NCBI RefSeq assembly: GCF_056746865.1
Contig: NZ_CM163382.1
Strand: one strand, 5' to 3'
Length of the DNA: 64,000 nucleotides
Made by a program: the position numbers and the translations under genes. The notes below the pieces were generated by a model. It ran no database searches. It saw only the letters and a program-made list of their open reading frames with translations, and was not told the DNA's origin. This document shows positions 7,820 through 51,937 of the stretch, piece after piece (the stretch's first letter is position 1; each line of letters opens with the position of its first letter).

Positions 7820-7919
7820 CGGGGTATCTCCTTTATGAGTTATGGTAAAAAGATACGCAGATTTACTCTTGCTTGAAAATGAATAATATTAAGCCACTTA
7901 TTCATGAATCGAGAATATT

Positions 7920-8795
7920 ATGGATCTGACCCAACTGGAGATGTTCAACGCGGTTGCCGAAGCTGGCAGCATTACCCAGGCTGCAGCAAAAGTGCATCGC
8001 GTGCCGTCGAATCTCACTACCCGTCTACGCCAGCTGGAAACAGAACTGGGGGTTGATCTGTTTATTCGCGAGAATCAGCGTTTACGTCTCTCGCCTGCCG
8101 GGCATAACTTTTTACGCTATAGCCAACAAATTCTCGCGTTAGTGGATGAAGCGCGGAGCGTTGTCGCTGGCGATGAGCCGCAAGGTTTATTTTCTCTTGG
8201 TTCGCTGGAAAGCACCGCAGCGGTGCGCATTCCGGCCACGCTGGCGCAATTTAACCGTCGTTATCCCAAAATTCAGTTTTCACTTTCCACCGGCCCTTCC
8301 GGCACTATGCTGGAAGGTGTGCTGGAGGGAAAACTGAATGCAGCGTTTATTGATGGGCCCATTAACCATACTGCCATTGACGGGATACCGGTGTACCGCG
8401 AGGAGCTGATGATCGTCACGCCACAAGGACATGCGCCAGTAACCCGCGCCAGTCAGGTTAATGGCAGTAACATTTATGCCTTCCGCGCCAATTGTTCGTA
8501 TCGTCGCCACTTCGAGAGCTGGTTTCATGCTGACGGTGCCGCTCCGGGAACTATCCATGAGATGGAGTCTTATCACGGAATGTTGGCCTGTGTGGTCGCA
8601 GGAGCAGGTATTGCGCTTATTCCGCGCTCTATGCTGGAAAGTATGCCGGGGCATCACCAGGTTGAGGCGTGGCCGTTAGCTGAGCAATGGCGTTGGTTAA
8701 CAACCTGGCTGGTCTGGCGTCGCGGTGCGAAAACGCGTCCGCTTGAGGCATTTATTCAACTACTGGATGTGTCTGACTCGGCAAAACAGAGTTAG
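7920..8795 (+). CDS. yneJ: LysR-family transcriptional regulator
   Basis: N-terminal HTH ([23 protein letters not shown]); divergent from sad; the exact start may lie a few codons upstream. Confidence 0.85.
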
Positions 8796-8878
8796 CAATG
8801 AGCTATTTTTGATAGTTCTTGCGGCTAATATGCTCTATATAGTGATGTTCCGATGACTTATGACTATATGGGGCAAAT

Positions 8879-9994
8879 ATGGTTACGCCAGTAAGCATCA
8901 GCAATTACATATCTCTTCCTGATGATTTTCCCGTACGTAATATTGCACCACAGGTAAAAGAAGTTTTAAAGGATTTCATTGATGCACTCAGTACAATAAT
9001 ATGTGATGAAGAGTGGCGTACGTCTTTAAACATCAACTCAGCCACAAAAAAGATATTTAATAACCTTGACAACTTATCATATATTCAGAGGACTTCTTTT
9101 CGGGGTAACGACACGCTATACAATGAAAAGGTTCAGTTTAAACTCACTTATCCCGTCAAGAATGGAAGACACAAAGAAAATATTGAATTTCAGGTAGTAA
9201 TAAATTTAAGCCCTATTTATTTAGATAATTTCCGCCATGATGGGGAAATTAATATTTTTTGCGCTCCCAACCCAAAGCCTGTCACTATGGGGCGCGTATT
9301 TCAGACCGGCGTCGAGCGTGTACTCTTTCTGTTCCTGAATGACTTTATAGAACAATTTCCAATAATCAACCCTGGCGTTCCTATCAAAAGAGCGCATACG
9401 CCACATATTGAACCCCTGCATCCGGATCACCATACCGCTGCAGATTACTTACGCCAGTTTGATTTGCTTGTCCTGAATTTTATCTCTCGCGGTAATTTTG
9501 TCATACTCCCCCGATTATGGAATAACTCTGAGGTTCACAGATGGTTCGGGAATAAAGAACCTAACTTGCTCACCGCTATTCTCGACATAACGGACAGCGA
9601 ATTAAAAGAGGATTTATTGCAAAGTCTGATGGATTCACTAGGTTCTAACAAACATGTACTACCCGAAGTCTGCATCTGCTTTTTATCCCTTTTAGCAGAA
9701 CAAGATTTTCCACATTTTCAGGACTTGTTTTTATTTTTCGCCAATATGTTATTGCACTATCACCAATTTATGAATCCCAATGAAAGTGATTTGATTGACG
9801 TGTTGATGCCAGCATCATTAAGTGATGATAAAATTATCAAACATATGGCGCGCAAGACCCTCAAACTTTTTGTAAAAAATGAAACGCCGCCAAAAGTTAC
9901 TCATGAAGACCTGGTGAAAAACAGGCCTCGCTCCCCTGTCAGACCACCTATACCCGCAACCTCCAAAACGCCAGACCTCCCTGAACGTCATTAA
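8879..9994 (+). CDS. yneK: uncharacterised protein YneK
   Basis: 371-aa ORF; markedly AT-rich compared with neighbouring genes; no recognisable catalytic motif. Confidence 0.8.
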   Translation: MVTPVSISNYISLPDDFPVRNIAPQVKEVLKDFIDALSTIICDEEWRTSLNINSATKKIFNNLDNLSYIQRTSFRGNDTLYNEKVQFKLTYPVKNGRHKENIEFQVVINLSPIYLDNFRHDGEINIFCAPNPKPVTMGRVFQTGVERVLFLFLNDFIEQFPIINPGVPIKRAHTPHIEPLHPDHHTAADYLRQFDLLVLNFISRGNFVILPRLWNNSEVHRWFGNKEPNLLTAILDITDSELKEDLLQSLMDSLGSNKHVLPEVCICFLSLLAEQDFPHFQDLFLFFANMLLHYHQFMNPNESDLIDVLMPASLSDDKIIKHMARKTLKLFVKNETPPKVTHEDLVKNRPRSPVRPPIPATSKTPDLPERH

Positions 9995-10143
9995 ACCGTG
10001 ATGTGACCGACTCTCTGACGCGTGAACGAATCAGCGTCAGAGAAACGGAAAACGCGATCCAGATCACAAATGCATTGTATTCACATCATTAACCGTTTTA
10101 AGATCATTTCATCACTTTTTCGCAACTCACCCGATAATCTGTT

Positions 10144-11334
10144 ATGACAACAAACACTGTTTCCCGCAAAGTGGCGTGGCTACGGGTCGTTACGCTGGCA
10201 GTCGCCGCCTTCATCTTCAACACCACCGAATTTGTCCCAGTTGGCCTGCTCTCTGACATTGCGCAAAGTTTTCACATGCAAACCGCTCAGGTCGGCATTA
10301 TGTTGACCATTTACGCATGGGTAGTAGCGCTAATGTCATTGCCTTTTATGTTAATGACCAGCCAGGTTGAACGGCGCAAATTACTGATCTGCCTGTTTGT
10401 GGTGTTTATTGCCAGCCACGTACTGTCGTTTTTGTCGTGGAGCTTTACCGTTCTAGTGATCAGTCGCATTGGTGTGGCTTTTGCACATGCGATTTTCTGG
10501 TCGATTACGGCGTCTCTGGCGATCCGTATGGCTCCGGCCGGAAAGCGAGCGCAGGCATTGAGTTTAATTGCCACCGGTACAGCACTGGCAATGGTATTAG
10601 GTTTACCTCTCGGGCGCATTGTGGGGCAGTATTTTGGCTGGCGAATGACCTTCTTCGCGATTGGTATCGGGGCGTTTATTACCCTTTTGTGCCTGATTAA
10701 GTTACTTCCCTTACTGCCCAGTGAGCATTCCGGTTCGCTGAAAAGCCTACCGCTATTATTCCGCCGCCCGGCATTGATGAGCATTTATTTGTTAACTGTG
10801 GTGGTTGTCACCGCCCATTACACGGCATACAGCTATATCGAGCCTTTTGTGCAAAACATTGCGGGATTCAGCGCCAACTTTGCCACGGCATTACTGTTAT
10901 TACTCGGTGGTGCGGGCATTATTGGCAGCGTGATTTTCGGTAAACTGGGTAATCAGTATGCGTCTGCGTTGGTAAGTACGGCGATTGCGCTGTTGCTGGT
11001 GTGCCTGGCACTGCTGCTACCTGCGGCGAACAGTGAAATACACCTCGGGGTGCTGAGTATTTTCTGGGGGATAGCGATGATGATCATCGGGCTTGGTATG
11101 CAGGTTAAAGTGCTGGCGCTGGCACCAGATGCTACCGACGTCGCGATGGCGCTATTCTCTGGGATATTTAATATTGGAATCGGCGCGGGTGCGTTGGTAG
11201 GTAATCAGGTCAGTCTGCACTGGTCAATGTCGATGATTGGTTATGTGGGCGCGGTGCCTGCTTTTGCCGCGTTAATATGGTCAATCATCATTTTCCGCCG
11301 CTGGCCAGTGACACTCGAAGAACAGACGCAATAG
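10144..11334 (+). CDS. sotB: MFS sugar efflux transporter
   Basis: 396-aa ORF with about 12 predicted TM segments (ydeA); synteny next to marC. Confidence 0.9.
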
Positions 11335-15860: not shown

Positions 15861-16226
15861 ATGATTGATGTCTTAGGACCGGAGAAACGCAGACGGCGTA
15901 CTACACAGGAAAAGATCGCTATTGTTCAGCAGAGTTTTGAACCGGGAATGACGGTCTCCCTTGTTGCCCGGCAACACGGTGTGGCAGCCAGCCAGTTATT
16001 TCTCTGGCGCAAGCAATACCAGGAGGGAAGTCTTACTGCTGTGGCCGCAGGAGAGCAGGTCGTTCCTGCCTCTGAACTTGCTGCTGCCATGAAGCAGATT
16101 AAAGAACTCCAGCGCCTGCTCGGCAAAAAAACGATGGAAAATGAACTCCTTAAAGAAGCCGTTGAATACGGGCGTGCAAAAAAGTGGATAGCGCACGCGC
16201 CCTTATTGCCCGGGGATGGGGAGTAA
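15861..16226 (+). CDS. insC: IS2 transposase OrfA (InsC)
   Basis: Translation [56 protein letters not shown]... with HTH; 121 aa from the internal ATG. Confidence 0.93.
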
Positions 16227-17089
16227 GCTTAGTCAGCCGTTGTCTCCGGGTGTCGCGTGCGCAGTTGCACGTCATTCTCAGACGAACCGATGACTGGAAA
16301 GATGGTCGCCGCAGCCGTCACTCAGATGATACGGATGTGCTTCTCCGTATACACCATGTTATCGGAGAGCTGCCCACGTATGGTTATCGTCGGGTATGGG
16401 CGCTGCTTCGCAGACAGGCCGAACTTGATGGTATGCCTGCGATCAATGCCAAACGTGTTTACCGGATCATGCGCCAGAATGCGCTGTTGCTTGAGCGAAA
16501 AACCGCTGTACCGCCATCGAAACGGGCACATACTGGCAAAGTGGCCGTGAAAGAAAGCAATCAACGATGGTGCTCTGACGGGTTCGAGTTCCGCTGTGAT
16601 AACGGAGAAAAACTGCGAGTCACGTTCGCGCTGGACTGCTGTGACCGTGAGGCACTGCACTGGGCAGTCACTACGGGCGGCTTCGACAGTGAAACAGTAC
16701 AGGACGTAATGCTGGGAGCGGTGGAACGCCGCTTCGGCAACGAGCTTCCGGCGTCTCCAGTAGAGTGGCTGACGGATAATGGTTCATGCTACCGGGCTAA
16801 TGAAACACGGCAGTTTGCCCGGATGTTGGGGCTTGAACCGAAGAACACGGCGGTGCGGAGTCCGGAGAGTAACGGCATAGCAGAGAGCTTCGTGAAAACG
16901 ATAAAGCGTGACTACATCAGTATCATGCCTAAACCAGACGGGTTAACGGCAGCAAAGAACCTTGCAGAGGCGTTCGAGCATTATAACGAATGGCATCCGC
17001 ATAGTGCACTGGGTTATCGCTCGCCACGGGAATATCTACGGCAGCGGGCCAGTAATGGGTTAAGTGATAACAGGTGTCTGGAAATATAG
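16184..17089 (+). CDS. insD: IS2 transposase OrfB (InsD), DDE catalytic domain; probably expressed as an OrfAB fusion by -1 frameshift
   Basis: 301-aa ORF in the -1 frame relative to insC, overlapping its 3' end; integrase-like core. Confidence 0.93.
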
Positions 17090-17100
17090 GGGCAAATCCA

Positions 17101-17105
17101 CTGGG
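17101..17105. repeat. IS2 target-site duplication, right copy (CTGGG)
   Basis: Identical to 15765-15769. Confidence 0.85.
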
Positions 17106-17220
17106 TAATATGAATGTTTTTATGGCCGTACTGGGAATAATTTTATTTTCTGGTTTTCTGGCCGCGTATTTCAGCCACAAATGGGATGACTAATGAACGG
17201 AGATAATCCCTCACCTAACC

Positions 17221-17418: not shown

Positions 17419-18302
17419 CGGTTAATCACATTTTGTTCGTCAATAAACATACAGCGATTTCTTCCGGTTTGCTTACCCTCATACATTGCCCGGTCCGCTC
17501 TTCCAATGACCACATCCAGAGGTTCTTCAGGAAATGCGCGACTCACACCTGCAGTCACGGTAATGTTGATATGCCCTTCAGAATGTGTGATGGCATGGTT
17601 ATCGACTAACTGGCAAATTCTGATACCTGCACGACATGCTTCTTCATCATTAGCCGCTTTGACAATAATGATAAATTCTTCGCCACCGTAGCGATAAACC
17701 GTTTCGTAATCGCGCGTCCAACTGGCTAAGTAAGTTGCCAGGGTGCGTAATACTACATCGCCGATTAAATGCCCGTAGGTATCATTAACCAATTTAAATC
17801 GGTCAATATCCAACAACATTAAATAAAGATTCAGAGGCTCAGCGTTGCGTAACTGATGATCAAAGGATTCATCAAGAACCCGACGACCCGGCAATCCCGT
17901 CAAAACATCCATATTGCTACGGATCGTCAGCAAATAAATTTTGTAATCGGTTAATGCCGCAGTAAAAGAAAGCAACCCTTCCTGAAAGGCGTCGAAATGC
18001 GCGTCCTGCCAGTGATTTTCAACAATAGCCAACATTAATTCCCGACCACAGTTATGCATATGTTGATGGGCAGAATCCATTAGCCGAACGTAAGGTAATT
18101 CATCGTTATCGAGTGGTCCCAGATGATCAATCCACCGACCAAACTGGCACAGTCCATAAGAATGGTTATCCGTTATTTCTGGCTTACTGGCATCTCTCGC
18201 GACCACGCTGTGAAACATACTCACCAGCCACTGGTAGTGGGCATCGATAGCCTTATTGAGATTTAACAAGATGGCATCAATTTCCGTTGTCTTCTTGATC
18301 AT
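17412..18302 (-). CDS. dgcZ: zinc-sensing diguanylate cyclase DgcZ
   Basis: Start trimmed to MIKKTTEID (296 aa); C-terminal GGDEF (RYGGEEFII) and N-terminal zinc-binding-like region with His/Cys residues; corresponds to ydeH. Confidence 0.9.
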   Translation of the reverse strand: MIKKTTEIDAILLNLNKAIDAHYQWLVSMFHSVVARDASKPEITDNHSYGLCQFGRWIDHLGPLDNDELPYVRLMDSAHQHMHNCGRELMLAIVENHWQDAHFDAFQEGLLSFTAALTDYKIYLLTIRSNMDVLTGLPGRRVLDESFDHQLRNAEPLNLYLMLLDIDRFKLVNDTYGHLIGDVVLRTLATYLASWTRDYETVYRYGGEEFIIIVKAANDEEACRAGIRICQLVDNHAITHSEGHINITVTAGVSRAFPEEPLDVVIGRADRAMYEGKQTGRNRCMFIDEQNVINRV

Positions 18303-18556
18303 TGCCACTCCTTTTTCACAGTTCCTTGTGCGCGCTATTCTAACGAGAGAAAAGCAAAATTACGTCAATATTTTCATAGAAATCCGAAGTTATGAGTCAT
18401 CTCTGAGATAACATTGTGATTTGAAACAAAATCAGCAGATAAAAAAGTGTTTAATTCTGTAAATTAAGCCTGCATTATCGCAATTAAAAGGATGACAAAT
18501 AGCATAAACCAATACCCTAATGGCCCAGTAGTTCAGGCCATCAGGCTCATTTATTT

Positions 18557-18949
18557 TTATTTCTGCAAATGAGTGACCCGAACGACGGCCGGCGCGCTTT
18601 TCTTATCCAGACTGCCGCTAATGTTGATCATCTGGTCCGGCTGAACTTCTCGTCCATCAAAGACTGCCGCAGGAATAACAACATTAATTTCACCGCTCTT
18701 ATCGCGAAAAACGTAACGGTCCTCTCCTTTGTGAGAAATCAAATTACCGCGTAGTGAAACCGAAGCGCCATCATGCATGGTTTTTGCGAAATCTACGGTC
18801 ATTTTTTTTGCATCATCGGTTCCGCGATAGCCATCTTCTATTGCATGAGGCGGCGGTGGCGCTGCATCCTGTTTTAAACCGCCCTGGTCATCTGCCAACG
18901 CATAAGGCATGACAAGAAAACTTGCTAATACAATGGCCTGAAATTTCAT
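18557..18949 (-). CDS. ydeI: periplasmic OB-fold (YgiW/BOF family) stress protein
   Basis: 130-aa ORF with an N-terminal signal peptide ([19 protein letters not shown]). Confidence 0.85.
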
Positions 18950-19313
18950 ACTGACTCCTTAATTGCGTTTGGTTTGACTTATTAAGTCTGGTTGCTATTT
19001 TTATAATTGACAAATAAGAATACTGCCAATTGTTATAAGGCATTTAAAATCAGGCAACTAGCTGTCAAATATTAAGAGAATTTAACTCACTAAAGTAAGA
19101 AGAAGATTAAAGAGTCTTAAACATATTTCAGAACAATCAGATTTATAAATTTGAAAATTATTATAACGGAAGGGTATACAAAAAAAGTAATTTTGCTGGC
19201 GACTGCGAAACGGCATTCGCATTAGCGGTGAAGTTTGCCCCCACCCAGCTGCTGCAATTACTGCTCTAACCAGGCTGGCCTGGCGATATCTCCAGGCCAG
19301 CCATTGGTGGTGT

Positions 19314-21359
19314 TTATATGTTCAAGCCACGATGTTGCAGCATCGGCATAATCTGAGGTGCCTTACCGCGCCATTGTCGATACAGGCGTTCCAGATCTTC
19401 GCTGTTACCTCTGGAAAGAATCGCCTCGCGAAAACGCCGCCCATTTTCACGCGTTAATCCGCCCTGCTCAACAAACCACTGGTAACCATCATCGGCCAAC
19501 ATTTGCGTCCACAGATAAGCGTAATAACCTGCGGCATATCCGCCACCAAAAATATGGGCGAAATAACTGCTGCGATAGCGTGGCGGTATAGCGGGAAGAT
19601 CCATATTTTCTGCCACCAGCGCCCGCAATTCGAAATCATCGACATCCTGCATTGCTTCGTTTTCTTCCAGGCAATGCCAGCGCATATCGAGAAGTGCGGC
19701 GCTAAGCAGTTCGCTCATCTCATACCCTTTATTGAACAGGCTGGCATTACGCATTTTCTGTTGCAGTTCGTCAGGCATTGCTGCCCCGCTCTGATAATGC
19801 CGGGCGTAGCGAGCGAATACCTGCGGATGCGTTGCCCAGTGTTCGTTGATTTGCGACGGAAATTCGACAAAATCACGCGGCGTGTTGGTGCCGGAAAGTG
19901 TGGCATAACGCTGGCGGGCAAAGAGGCCGTGCAACGTATGACCAAATTCATGGAATAAGGTTATGACATCATCCCAGAGTAACAACGCAGGCTCACCGGC
20001 AGCGGGTTTCTGATAATTGCAGACGTTATAAATTACCGGATGCGTTTCATTAAGCGTTGATTGCTCAACAAAATTGCCCATCCATGCACCGCCGCTTTTT
20101 GAATCACGGGCGAAGAAATCACCGTAAAATAACGCCAGCCCCACGCCATTATGATCAAAAATTTCCCATACACGAACGTCAGGATGGTAGACAGGAATAT
20201 CAAAACGTTCGACAAACTTAATACCGAAGAGCTGATTCGCGGTCCAGAATACACCTTCATTCAACACCGTGTTTAATTCAAAATATGGCTTGAGCTGCGA
20301 TTCATCGAGATCGAATTTCTCACGTCTTACCTGCTCGGCATAAAATGCCCAGTCCCACGGCTGCGCGCTAAACCCGCCCTGCTGCTTATCGATAACCGCC
20401 TGTATGGAGGCTAATTCATCGCTCGCACGTTGACGCGCCGCTGGAACAATTTCCCGCATAAAGTTGAGTGCTGCTTCTGGCGTTTTTGCCATCTGATCGG
20501 CGATTTTCCATGCGGCATAATGAGGGAAACCAAGCAGTTTCGCCTGCTGCGCGCGGATCTCCACCAGACGTTGAATGATAGCGCGGGTATCATTGGCATC
20601 ATTTTTTTCCGCTCGCGTCCAGCCCGCAGTGAACAGTTTTTCACGCGTCGCGCGATCGCGCAGTTCAGCAAGCGCTGGTTGCTGGGTGGTATTCAGCAAC
20701 GGAATCAGCCATTTGTTATCCAGACCTTTCTCGCGAGCCGCCTCTGCCGCCAGCGCAATCTCTTGCTCACTCATTCCTGCCAGCTGCGCGAAATCGTTCA
20801 CAACCAGACCGCCGGATTTATTTGCTGCCAGTAACCGCTGGTTAAACTGGCTGGTCAGGGTCGCAGCTTCTGTATTCAGGACTTTTAATTTTGCTTTATC
20901 AGCTTGTGCAAGTTTGGCTCCGGCAAGGACAAAACGTTGATGAATGACCTCCACCAGGCGGATGGATTCACTATCAAGTCCCAGGGATTCACGGCGTTGC
21001 CAGACAGCATCTACCCGCGCGAATAATTCACCGTTCAGATAGATATCATTAGCCAGTTCCGCCAGTTCAGCGGAAAACTGTTCATCAAGACGCTGTAATT
21101 CATCATTAGTATGCGCCGCAGTCATCGCAAAAAAGACGCTGGTAACGCGGGTAAGTAATTCTCCGCTTTGTTCCAGTGCCAGAATAGTATTGTTGAAATC
21201 AGGTGTTTGCGGGTTAAGCGCGATGGCAGCAATTTCTGCCCGCTTTTGCTGCATTCCCTCATCGAATGCCGGGCGATAGTGATGATTGGCAATTTGATCA
21301 AAATGGGGAGCCAGATACGGCAGTGTGCTTTGCACAAGGAAAGGATTCATTGTTGTCAT
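19314..21359 (-). CDS. dcp: peptidyl-dipeptidase Dcp (M3 metallopeptidase)
   Basis: Start trimmed to MTTMNPFLVQ (681 aa); zinc motif HEFGHTLH present. Confidence 0.93.
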   Translation of the reverse strand: MTTMNPFLVQSTLPYLAPHFDQIANHHYRPAFDEGMQQKRAEIAAIALNPQTPDFNNTILALEQSGELLTRVTSVFFAMTAAHTNDELQRLDEQFSAELAELANDIYLNGELFARVDAVWQRRESLGLDSESIRLVEVIHQRFVLAGAKLAQADKAKLKVLNTEAATLTSQFNQRLLAANKSGGLVVNDFAQLAGMSEQEIALAAEAAREKGLDNKWLIPLLNTTQQPALAELRDRATREKLFTAGWTRAEKNDANDTRAIIQRLVEIRAQQAKLLGFPHYAAWKIADQMAKTPEAALNFMREIVPAARQRASDELASIQAVIDKQQGGFSAQPWDWAFYAEQVRREKFDLDESQLKPYFELNTVLNEGVFWTANQLFGIKFVERFDIPVYHPDVRVWEIFDHNGVGLALFYGDFFARDSKSGGAWMGNFVEQSTLNETHPVIYNVCNYQKPAAGEPALLLWDDVITLFHEFGHTLHGLFARQRYATLSGTNTPRDFVEFPSQINEHWATHPQVFARYARHYQSGAAMPDELQQKMRNASLFNKGYEMSELLSAALLDMRWHCLEENEAMQDVDDFELRALVAENMDLPAIPPRYRSSYFAHIFGGGYAAGYYAYLWTQMLADDGYQWFVEQGGLTRENGRRFREAILSRGNSEDLERLYRQWRGKAPQIMPMLQHRGLNI

Positions 21360-24982: not shown

Positions 24983-26350
24983 TTACAGACTTCTTGAAGG
25001 TTGCGCAGCTGTTACAACACGCGGTTGATCTTCCGCGGCATCTTCCAGTGCACTTAAATCACGGTCTCTCACTTCTGGCATTTTCAGCGCAGAGATTAAA
25101 CCAATCACTGAATATGCCATGATCATAATGGCGATCGGATACCAGGATTCCGTCATGGTGCAGAAAATACCCGCCAGGATAGGACCAAAACCGGAAGCGA
25201 TAAGACCACCAATTTCTTTAGAAATCGCCATCCGGGTAAAGCGGTTTTTACAGCCGAACATTTCTGCCATGGTAATGTTTTCCAGAGCAAATAATCCCAG
25301 CACCGCACAGTTATGAATCACAATCAGTGCAACCATAATGGTGCTCGGGGCATAGCTTTTATCTACGATGATAGAAAGCATTGGCCACGCCAGCACAATC
25401 GCAGAGGTATTCATAATAATATACGGGATCCGGCGACCTATTTTATCGGATAACCAACCAAGGAACGGAATGGTCATAAAGCCGAGAATCGAACTGATCA
25501 TCAATGCATCTGTTGGAATTGCTTTGTTAAACAATAACGTCTGCACTAAATAGCCTGCAAGGAAAGTCTGAATTAAACCGGAGTTACCAGCCTGACCAAA
25601 ACGCAGCCCTGTTGCCAGCCAGAAGGATTTGCTCTGGAACATGCTACCAGCAGGTGCAGGTTTTGCTGTCGGTTGGTTGCTGTCGTTAACCTTCTCAAAG
25701 ACCGGGCTTTCTTTCAGATTCATACGCAACCAGATAGCAAAGACCATCACGACAACGCTCGCCAGGAACGGTATACGCCATCCCCACGCAAGCAGTTCCT
25801 CTTTACTGAGAATGAAGAACATAAAGGCCCAGATTGCCGTTGCGCTCAAGGTTCCGCAGTTAGTCCCCATAGCAACAAATGAGGAGATAATTCCGCGCTT
25901 ACCTTTTGGTGCATATTCCGCCAGCATCGTGCCGGCACCGGAAATTTCCGCGCCTGCCCCCAGCCCCTGAATAATACGCAGCGTCACCAGCAAAATTGGC
26001 GCAAACACACCAATTTGTGCATAGGTCGGCAGCACACCAATTAAGGTAGTACAGATCCCCATCATAGTGATGGTAATAAAGAGCACTTTTTTACGCCCGA
26101 TTCTGTCGCCCATTTTGCCGAAAATAAATGCTCCGACAATACGCGCCACATAACCTGCACCGTAGGTTCCCATTGCCAGAATTAACGCCATTGCCGTTGA
26201 TGATTCAGGAAAAAATATTTCATGAAACACTAACGCTGCGCCGAGCGAATATAACTGGAAATCCATAAATTCAAGCGCAGTGCCCAGCCATCCCGATACT
26301 GCTGCTTTCACCAAATCCTTAGTGCTTCTTTCGTGTTTTTCTATTGTCAT
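24983..26350 (-). CDS. ydfJ: MFS metabolite:H+ symporter, full-length
   Basis: 455-aa uninterrupted ORF with multiple TM segments, immediately upstream of rspB. Confidence 0.88.
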   Translation of the reverse strand: MTIEKHERSTKDLVKAAVSGWLGTALEFMDFQLYSLGAALVFHEIFFPESSTAMALILAMGTYGAGYVARIVGAFIFGKMGDRIGRKKVLFITITMMGICTTLIGVLPTYAQIGVFAPILLVTLRIIQGLGAGAEISGAGTMLAEYAPKGKRGIISSFVAMGTNCGTLSATAIWAFMFFILSKEELLAWGWRIPFLASVVVMVFAIWLRMNLKESPVFEKVNDSNQPTAKPAPAGSMFQSKSFWLATGLRFGQAGNSGLIQTFLAGYLVQTLLFNKAIPTDALMISSILGFMTIPFLGWLSDKIGRRIPYIIMNTSAIVLAWPMLSIIVDKSYAPSTIMVALIVIHNCAVLGLFALENITMAEMFGCKNRFTRMAISKEIGGLIASGFGPILAGIFCTMTESWYPIAIMIMAYSVIGLISALKMPEVRDRDLSALEDAAEDQPRVVTAAQPSRSL

Positions 26351-26407
26351 AATGGTTATCTCTAAAAAAGAGGTAAGATGCGTACTACTTACTCGCCGTT
26401 ATTGGTA

Positions 26408-27427
26408 TTATTCAGAAAAAGTGAGTAAGACTTTGCAGCAATGCTTTTGATCCTGTTCAAATAAACTAATGGCATCAGCAACATGCTGGAAATCAAACGT
26501 ATGGGTAATTAGTTTTTCTGGTTTAATTAACCCTTTACTTAACCAGTCGATAACGACCGGGAATTTATTTGCATTTAAGCGTGAAGAGAAAATAGAGAGT
26601 TCTTTTCCGGTAATTCCTTGCTGAATCACTTCAGACGGTTCACTGGAGAAGCCCATCAATACAATACGTGCCGCTGGAGAAGCCAGCGTTACGGCTTCTT
26701 TCAGGATTGAAGGATGACAAGCCGCATCGATAATTAATGTCGGCTTTATGCCTTTTTCAGCGAAAATCTCGCCAAGCGGTGTCTGGCTGTTATTAATCGC
26801 CCAGTCTGCCCCGCTCTCTTTCGCTTTTTCCAGTCGTTCATCAATGCGATCGGCAACAATCACATTCTTAACGTTATAGACGCCTTTTAATACCTGAACG
26901 ATCGTCAGGCCGATTGGACCGGCACCGTAAACCAGAACGGTATCATTTTCAGTCGGTTGACCATGACCGGTAACGTTAGCCGCAATGGTAAAAGGTTCGA
27001 TCATCACCGCATATTGATCGGCCACTGCTTCAGGAATTTTCCACGCATTTTTTGCCGGCACCACGGCATATTCACTGAAACCACCGTCAGCGTGCACACC
27101 TAATACAGCCAGTGTCGTACAAACGTTCGGCTTACCTATAGAGCACGGATAGCAATGCCCACAGCTGACCACCGGATCGACAGCAACGCGTTCACCGACT
27201 CTGGCGCTTTCCACGCCTTCACCCACTGCATCAATGACGCCAAAGAATTCATGACCAATGACGCGCGGATATTTCGCAAAAGGATTATGCCCACGATAAA
27301 TATGGCTATCTGAACCACAAATTCCGGCAAGTTTCACTTTTACTCGTACTTCACCCGCTGACGGGGTGGGTATTTCGCGTTCGATAATTGCCAGTTGATT
27401 CGGTTTTTCAATTAAAATGCTTTTCAT
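26408..27427 (-). CDS. rspB: starvation-sensing protein RspB (zinc-dependent dehydrogenase)
   Basis: Start trimmed to MKSILIEK (339 aa); zinc-ADH motifs GHEFFGVI and CGHCYPC. Confidence 0.92.
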   Translation of the reverse strand: MKSILIEKPNQLAIIEREIPTPSAGEVRVKVKLAGICGSDSHIYRGHNPFAKYPRVIGHEFFGVIDAVGEGVESARVGERVAVDPVVSCGHCYPCSIGKPNVCTTLAVLGVHADGGFSEYAVVPAKNAWKIPEAVADQYAVMIEPFTIAANVTGHGQPTENDTVLVYGAGPIGLTIVQVLKGVYNVKNVIVADRIDERLEKAKESGADWAINNSQTPLGEIFAEKGIKPTLIIDAACHPSILKEAVTLASPAARIVLMGFSSEPSEVIQQGITGKELSIFSSRLNANKFPVVIDWLSKGLIKPEKLITHTFDFQHVADAISLFEQDQKHCCKVLLTFSE

Positions 27428-46660: not shown

Positions 46661-47012
46661 GGTTCACCTCCAGTTCAGGTTTACGCGCTTTACGGGTACC
46701 TGATTTGATCAATACAATCCCGGCGACCAGGGTGGTTAACCCGGCAATTTTCATCAGCGATAAACTTTCGTCGAATAACAAAACACTAAACAAGGTAATA
46801 AATAAAATACCGATACCTTCCCACAGCGCATAAGCCACGCCTAAGGCGATCTTTTTAACGGCGAAAGAGAGAAATATATACGACAGAGAAATCATCACCA
46901 GCATTAAAATAAAGCCGCCATTTCCCTCACTGACGCTCGCCCATTTCATAGACAGCGTACCGGTAATTTCTGTAGCAATAGCCAGACCTAATAAAATCCA
47001 ATAAATATACAT
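46647..47012 (-). CDS. mdtJ: SMR-family spermidine exporter subunit MdtJ
   Basis: 121-aa ORF with four TM helices; 14-bp overlap with mdtI. Confidence 0.92.
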
Positions 47013-47423
47013 TGTCCTTCTCCTGCAAGAGAATTATTTTAATTTTCGCTTAATTCAGCGAAACCAAAGTAAAGTGGTCAAGCCCCGCGCATAGCGCAAG
47101 CTTTGGCAGAAGAAAGGACTAAAGCGCGTTGCGCCAGTGCTGCTCACCTACGAGCAAGATAGTGGATGAGGTACGAAGATGGGTAAATGTAGAAAATAAC
47201 GTCCTGAACAAATTGTCCATAATATTACAATTATCCGCAGTGTTGCTTCTCGTCATCGCGGATGATAATTGTCCTCGGTAGTTGAACACGCCTGATTTGT
47301 ATCATAGCTTAAGAATTAACTCAAAATATTTTCACTTCTTTACCTGAGCGGTTTGATTTTCGTTATGATGACGGAGCGAAATAGACATTATTATTAGCAA
47401 AGGAAGAAAAAACGGGGACAAGC

Positions 47424-49881: not shown

Positions 49882-51477
<1,596 letters not shown>

Positions 51478-51937
51478 TCATGTACGAGCTAAATGTTACT
51501 CCGTTAAAATAAATTAGTAACAAACGCCCTATAACGTACTGAAAATTATGCCTGTGATCTAGCGCCAAAAATCAGTATTTCGGCGTGAACTCGCAAAATA
51601 TTAACGATTCAGCCGTGATAGTGGGATAAACACCTTAGAACGCCGGATAAAGACTGATAATTGTCTTCGACGGTCAGGTAAAACGAGACATCGCCCCAGT
51701 ACGAATCACTACTTAACATTAAATTAACTTATACAATTCAGTTGCTTCAGTAGTATTGATGCTGATACGGCTGTTTTTTAAGCATAGACGGTCATTTGAG
51801 CAGGATTAAAATTGGTTTAAGGAATGTGATATGAAAAATGACGCAGACAGTTACACCGTTTAAATGCAATAATCAGCCACGTTTCTCGTTAATAACAATA
51901 CCAGTACCTGGTTTGCGCAAGGCGAAGGATTATTTTT

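Follow-up and report, generated by a model that had tools for sequence, protein, structure and literature searches.

yneK of Escherichia coli, an AT-rich Escherichia-restricted gene, probably acquired early between ptrR and ydeA and silenced by H-NS

The yneK gene of Escherichia coli is, with high probability, an Escherichia-restricted protein gene on an AT-rich insert of about 1.25 kb, which was acquired early, is silenced by H-NS and StpA, is accessory, and is not a target of the neighboring regulator PtrR. In the history that we propose, an early Escherichia ancestor, older than the separation of E. coli and E. albertii, would have received the AT-rich segment at a site bounded by the 3' end of ptrR and the promoter of ydeA. 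The evidence comes from a 64-kb stretch of DNA, hereafter the window, which is E. coli chromosome carrying tam, uxaB, glsB, sad, ptrR, yneK, ydeA, marC, marRAB, and eamA, from comparison of the locus across species, and from published K-12 data.

The interval 8800-10140 begins right after the stop of ptrR, ends shortly ahead of the ydeA start, and contains a single long ORF, the yneK CDS (8879..9994, plus strand), which has an ATG start and encodes 371 amino acids (42.9 kDa, pI 6.2). This ORF matched the NCBIfam equivalog model NF033404 'YneK' over residues 1-371 of 371, with 814.8 bits (E = 7.7e-246) against a curated cutoff of 40 bits. Positions 8796-10143 are 100% identical to strain 118UI, in which the RefSeq annotation is yneK, and the yneK region is 97.1% identical to that of K-12. 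The gene is preceded by ptrR, formerly yneJ (7920..8795, plus strand), which regulates putrescine and GABA use; its Pfam HTH_1 and LysR_substrate domains agree with an earlier note on this DNA, which had placed a LysR regulator, yneJ, upstream of yneK. It is followed by ydeA (10144..11334, plus strand), an MFS transporter gene and the ancestral downstream neighbor of ptrR. The genes ptrR and yneK lie on the same strand, 83 bp apart, and the spacer between them (8796..8878, plus strand, GC 0.361) contains neither a strong sigma-70 consensus promoter nor a terminator after ptrR. At and after the yneK stop, two very stable RNA hairpins are predicted (9985..10048, plus strand, -29.5 kcal/mol, z = -5.3), with no U-tract downstream. 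The main stem is retained in E. albertii, with a G-U-compatible change, and in the deletion allele described below, and an Rfam search of 8500-10400, hairpins included, matched no family. These hairpins may constitute a 3'-end or stabilizer structure. Further along the window, an IS3-family (IS2-like) element at 15861-17200 adjoins mgtS/mgtT, with one ORF for a transposase HTH domain (15861-16226) and one for an integrase core domain (16433-17089); strain 118UI, identical in the yneK region, lacks the element at that site, and the window therefore represents another strain.

The composition of yneK departs sharply from that of its surroundings. Its GC content is 0.398 (GC1 0.487, GC2 0.312, GC3 0.395), compared to 0.504 (sd 0.030) for the 58 long ORFs of the window, whose GC3 averages 0.529 (sd 0.053). 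It thus has the lowest GC of the 58 (z about -3.6) and a GC3 among the lowest (z about -2.5), with the two neighbors at 0.541 (ptrR) and 0.511 (ydeA). Measured per 100 bp, GC falls from 0.52-0.56 at 8600-8799 to 0.31-0.47 over 8800-9899 and then returns to about 0.5, the drop starting at the ptrR stop and ending near the yneK stop. Positions 8796-10041 (GC 0.401) form the lowest-GC stretch of 1246 bp in the window; equally low stretches of that length represent 0.3%, and every one of them overlaps this segment. Within it, the density of runs of six or more A/T is 2.6 times the window average, which places the segment in the top 1.2%. Codon usage follows the same trend, with a window-referenced codon adaptation index of 0.601 where the ORF mean is 0.711 (sd 0.045), the second lowest of the 58 ORFs, and 8.1% rare codons against 3.7% elsewhere in the window. 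The windowed GC and codon-adaptation calculations therefore distinguish yneK from its neighbors, and the visual impression from which the earlier note started, an AT-rich 371-codon ORF with AT-rich flanks and GC well below that of the adjacent genes, is borne out. The anomaly is real and not a chance fluctuation. Other low-GC patches are present in the window at 18000-19400, 26000-26500, 46900-47100, and 51400-51600 (500-bp GC of 0.37-0.42).

The locus was compared at 80 sites around ptrR homologues, one genome per species, with sad, ptrR, yneK, ydeA, and marC located in each. Two subspecies of Salmonella, several Citrobacter, and Trabulsiella have a gap of about 110-250 bp between ptrR and ydeA, and the cryptic lineages E. 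whittamii, Escherichia sp. E1V33, and SCPM-O-B-8794 have one of 116 bp. E. coli and E. albertii carry in this gap about 1.25 kb of extra AT-rich DNA with yneK. Synteny, junction alignments, and composition place this lineage-specific segment at 8796..10041, with approximate boundaries (left about 8770-8795, right about 10042). On the right, the ancestral ptrR-ydeA spacer, which is the ydeA upstream region (10042..10143, plus strand), is conserved from Escherichia to Salmonella and Citrobacter and marks the insert edge; it aligns with the ancestral spacer and with remains of the ancestral ptrR stop region. On the left, the last 8-10 or so codons of ptrR differ from those of lineages devoid of yneK, because the insert junction falls within them. 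Both junctions are common to E. coli and E. albertii, and the GC drop coincides with them. By eye, the insert seemed to be flanked by a repeat of the ptrR 3' end or by a target-site duplication, but the similarity was not significant against shuffled sequences. No terminal inverted repeats or other terminal repeats were found in 8500-10400, no integrase or tRNA lies at the insert, and neither a donor homologue (phages, plasmids, IMG/VR) nor a mobile-element signature at the junctions was detected. The comparison provides good support for a probable insertion of the segment in the Escherichia lineage, and insertion and composition together support its likely foreign origin. The proposal that yneK was horizontally acquired thus gains from the short outgroup gap and from the GC drop at the junctions; the HGT databases used in a previous study scored yneK as not horizontally acquired (PMC8894471).

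The insert is not a recent arrival. Synonymous divergence (dS) of yneK between E. coli and E. albertii is 1.2-1.3, similar to the 0.8-1.3 of the flanking genes, which is consistent with vertical descent since these species split. The protein sequences have diverged unequally: YneK is 68% identical between the two species, compared to 91-95% for PtrR, Sad, and YdeA, and the non-synonymous rate of yneK is 3-5 times that of its neighbors. Its dN/dS ratio is 0.15-0.18 overall and drops to 0.06 for residues 141-215. The full frame has been kept in three lineages, namely the common and the divergent minor allele of E. coli and E. albertii, at 15-27% nucleotide divergence, and the chance of a 371-codon frame of such composition staying open is about 1e-10. 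A low dN/dS and a frame open in three lineages indicate that yneK encodes a selected protein; to judge by these substitution patterns, it is a real protein-coding gene under purifying selection. It is also old, predating the separation of E. coli and E. albertii. In the tree of the flanking genes, E. albertii is basal and the cryptic lineages group with E. coli, and yet these nested lineages, placed between E. albertii and E. coli, have a cleanly ancestral-looking site, which calls for a loss, for replacement of the allele, or for a presence/absence polymorphism of long standing. The simplest history has yneK gained once by an ancestor early in Escherichia and lost several times since. The minor allele, about 85% identical to the common one at the DNA level (dS 0.58), is found in 19 of 5426 complete E. 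coli genomes. Around it, 15 kb are 95-99% identical, and the divergence trough reaches no further than yneK and the nearest ends of ptrR and ydeA, a pattern that points to an old allele, either maintained or exchanged through recombination. The Escherichia sp. strain MOD1-EC7003, a close relative of E. coli, has E. coli-type junctions but no yneK, which is replaced by 64 bp of unrelated filler (7862-7925 of its locus). This looks like a separate loss; the filler was considered as a remnant of the insert, but bears no significant similarity to it.

Could yneK instead have arisen locally? In such a scenario, the gene would have been born de novo, or diverged beyond recognition, and, being silent and weakly selected, would have stayed AT-rich by drift toward an AT-biased mutational equilibrium. 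The confinement of its homologues to Escherichia, the lack of mobile-element scars, the rapid non-synonymous evolution relative to neighbors (3-5-fold), and a GC content that stays at 36-40% in the E. coli alleles and E. albertii alike, despite long residence and a dS above 1, are all in line with this possibility. However, about 1.25 kb of additional DNA needs a source, and the outgroup spacer offers only some 110-250 bp. In addition, GC1 and GC2 are low as well, so that AT-richness is built into the conserved protein, and a recent de novo birth fits poorly with a 371-codon, multi-helix protein whose core evolves with a dN/dS of 0.06. We consider a local origin unlikely, and favor early acquisition of the segment.

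The protein itself is an orphan. Neither Pfam, PHROG, PADLOC, nor PDB sequences gave a match to yneK. A search of 5.8 billion protein clusters returned 22 proteins, and wherever a source name was given, it was Escherichia or Shigella; when 1.84 billion representatives were searched exhaustively with a HMMER profile, short fragments of YneK itself were all that came back. Similarly, no relative emerged from phages and plasmids (tblastn) or from IMG/VR viral contigs. Overall, about 15 billion proteins, together with phages, plasmids, and viral contigs, contained no YneK homologue outside Escherichia/Shigella, consistent with reports that YneK is confined to E. coli and Shigella (PMC12757027, PMC11540155). 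Matches labeled as plasmids proved to be mislabeled chromosomes or pieces of chromosome, and fragments of 52-60% identity, candidate distant relatives, came from assemblies fragmented in every gene and were attributed to sequencing errors. One contig, SMXE01000224.1, labeled 'MAG: Caldithrix sp.', is 96-100% identical to E. coli at the protein level over sad-ptrR-yneK-ydeA-marC, and is almost certainly E. coli contamination of a metagenome bin.

Structure prediction did not assign YneK to a family. The AlphaFold (AF2) models are poor, with a pLDDT of 48 over the full length and of 56 over residues 141-340; searched by fold, they returned generic helical matches only, and no significant profile or structural match to any characterized family or fold was obtained. 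The designation of yneK as an orphan gene therefore stands, its only matches being Escherichia and Shigella proteins. Neither a signal peptide nor a transmembrane segment was found, and the product would be a soluble, cytoplasmic-type protein of 43 kDa, with a mixed alpha/beta N-terminal part, a helical C-terminal part, and a disordered, proline-rich basic tail. This tail (residues 336-371, 9884..9991, plus strand) is 25% proline, with predicted disorder, and evolves faster than any other part of YneK. The most conserved part comprises residues 146-215 (9314..9523, plus strand): in 30-residue blocks, residues 151-210 are 87% identical between E. coli and E. albertii, against 68% overall. Within it lies a His-rich stretch, KRAHTPHIEPLxPDHHTAADY (residues 170-190, 9386..9448, plus strand), which is nearly invariant in the alignment, matched no known motif, and is modeled by AF2 as a low-confidence coil. 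It had been claimed that YneK has no recognizable catalytic or secretion motif; this is slightly qualified by the conserved His-rich stretch, which would be a hint of metal binding or catalysis and may form a metal or active site. The N-terminus is rich in Ser, Ile, Pro, and Asn (MVTPVSISNYISLP), and this composition is the sole hint for a type III secretion effector, a speculative lead; no secretion genes adjoin yneK.

In a bolder version of this idea, YneK would be the founder of an Escherichia-only family with a real biochemical activity, silenced by H-NS and called upon only when the cell meets a host or a stress niche, where it might be secreted or interact with the host. If so, HTPHIEPLxPDHH would be its metal or active site, and niche use could explain why yneK is kept in E. 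coli and E. albertii and yet deleted in some lineages. We regard this version as improbable.

Published K-12 data address the silencing of yneK directly. The gene is in the 'H-NS bound' list of Forrest et al. 2022 (PMC8894471), and in a delta-hns strain its mRNA increases by log2 2.58, about 6-fold (P = 8e-11; PMC8894471). Two H-NS-bound regions are listed there, 1,615,763-1,615,828 and 1,616,473-1,616,597 (PMC8894471, Supplementary Data 3), both inside K-12 yneK (1,615,763-1,616,878 in NC_000913.3). Mapped to the window, on the assumption that PMC8894471 uses NC_000913.3 numbering, the first interval corresponds to 8879..8944 (yneK nt 1-66) and borders the 5' GC minimum, and the second corresponds to 9589..9713 (nt 711-835) and lies at the 3' GC minimum (0.31-0.36). 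Srinivasan et al. 2015 report for b1527 a log2 ratio of -5.65 in the wild type relative to delta-hns delta-stpA (P = 1e-67; PMC4288151), yneK being about 50-fold up in the absence of both hns and stpA (PMC4288151); since conditions differ between the two studies, the comparison of 6-fold with 50-fold is only indicative. The same table gives -2.1 for ptrR, +0.8 for sad, and +0.5 for ydeA (PMC4288151), so that sad and ydeA hardly change. Strong derepression in the published delta-hns delta-stpA data extends to three other genes, namely b4599 and the pair b1536 and b1537 immediately downstream of the mar genes. Wild-type cells express yneK very weakly (base mean of 14 reads; PMC9068703). In vitro, K-12 gSELEX peaks for several RNA polymerase holoenzymes and NtrC fall in or beside yneK, the ptrR-yneK spacer included (PMC8743547, PMC5493296), as expected for AT-rich DNA. 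The H-NS high-affinity motif, searched as a consensus, is only about 2-fold enriched in the yneK region at up to 2 mismatches, and is uninformative.

The published data thus show both H-NS binding and derepression of yneK in K-12, whose allele is 97% identical to that of the window's strain. What had been put forward from base composition, that yneK is silenced by H-NS, is backed by binding at two intervals within the gene and by derepression in delta-hns and delta-hns delta-stpA cells. Because the segment is AT-rich, it would be occupied by H-NS, with StpA as backup. In K-12, H-NS is bound at no fewer than two patches, the 5' end of yneK and nt 711-835, and from the general mechanism of this protein we infer that it may nucleate at both and bridge or coat the gene. 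A filament or bridge between the patches would block the weak upstream promoter and promoter-like sites within the gene, and such occupancy would hold yneK transcription near zero.

The position of yneK raises the question of whether it is controlled by PtrR instead. YneJ was renamed PtrR and represses sad in a GABA-responsive manner (PMC9068703). A reading that places yneK in the PtrR regulon, or on one transcript with ptrR, and gives it a part in putrescine, GABA, or glutamate metabolism draws on the shared strand, the 83-bp distance, and the lack of a terminator-like site between the genes, on the increase of yneK mRNA in a ptrR deletion (log2 2.78, about 7-fold, P = 0.032; PMC9068703, Table 5), and on the 4-fold or so increase of ptrR itself in delta-hns delta-stpA (PMC4288151). 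Against it, a pattern search of the window for the PtrR operator (TTCACnAATnGAGAA-like) gave a sole good match, TTCATGAATCGAGAA at 7901..7915 (plus strand) in the sad/ptrR divergent promoter region, with motif and binding described in PMC9068703, and none in 8796-8878 or near yneK. Moreover, the named PtrR ChIP-exo sites exclude yneK (PMC9068703), and the ptrR-sad cluster is kept across Enterobacteriaceae that are devoid of yneK. As for the deletion strain, because no terminator separates ptrR from yneK, the rise in so scarce a transcript can be adequately explained by read-through from the deletion construct. We judge membership in the PtrR regulon quite unlikely, and direct regulation of yneK by PtrR is unlikely; yneK would be no direct PtrR target. 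Regarding the suggestion that YneJ might regulate sad and/or yneK, the sad part is established in the literature, and the yneK part finds no operator to act through near the gene.

Loss of yneK is frequent. A 1012-bp deletion, which removes 8964..9975 and leaves a 40-codon remnant, is carried by 1116 of the 5426 complete E. coli genomes (21%), including NC101. Other disrupted forms include an IS903B insertion and split genes; truncated entries are common in the databases, with Shigella sonnei a notable source, and in the type strain of E. albertii the copy is interrupted by an internal stop. That yneK is a decaying remnant, an annotated ORF with no selected product, is very unlikely: although this deletion, the S. 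sonnei partial forms, the E. albertii stop, near silence in the wild type, an unconfirmed CAST screen hit (PMC12757027), and a weak adherence association (PMC11540155) would suit it, the purifying selection, strongest in the core, and the frame kept in three divergent lineages against such odds do not. We conclude that yneK is a selected yet dispensable accessory gene and not junk. Its role would be accessory and conditional, the gene being preserved where it is kept and deleted without replacement in whole lineages.

Orphan status, restriction to E. coli and Shigella, H-NS binding, and derepression of yneK were already documented in the public record, and the gene is an ordinary case of xenogeneic silencing. 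For genome scans, the lesson is that a composition anomaly can be real and already explained. Beyond annotation its value is small, and lies in being a clean single-gene example, an old and isolated AT-rich insert on which H-NS silencing persists. The insert shows no drift to host GC after divergence with a dS above 1, and it combines faster evolution than its neighbors, purifying selection, and repeated loss. It could serve as a handy small model for the persistence of silenced orphans and for the cost and gain of an H-NS-silenced gene.

Among known systems, yneK most resembles the AT-rich acquired genes subject to H-NS/StpA xenogeneic silencing in E. coli and Salmonella (PMC8894471, PMC4288151, PMC3923964). 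Like them, it is AT-rich and lineage-restricted, bound by H-NS within the gene, derepressed in hns and hns stpA mutants, and expressed at a very low basal level, and it diversifies faster than the flanking core genes. Unlike the typical silenced islands, it is an isolated gene of about 1.25 kb and not part of a multi-gene island; it also differs from silenced acquired genes in that its insert bears no integrase, tRNA, or IS scars, in being old and unflagged by the HGT databases used, and in having no known counter-silencer. With respect to the ptrR (yneJ)-sad-glsB cluster (PMC9068703), yneK shares its location directly downstream of ptrR on the same strand and an mRNA level that shifts in the ptrR deletion, but it lacks a PtrR operator and differs sharply from the cluster genes in composition and rate. 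Finally, YneK (UniProt P76150, NCBIfam NF033404) is similar to the other ORFan y-genes of E. coli K-12 in being uncharacterized and devoid of Pfam or KEGG assignment. To that earlier ORFan record, the present analysis adds an E. albertii orthologue (68% amino-acid identity), signs of purifying selection, the location of the insertion site, and counts of the losses.
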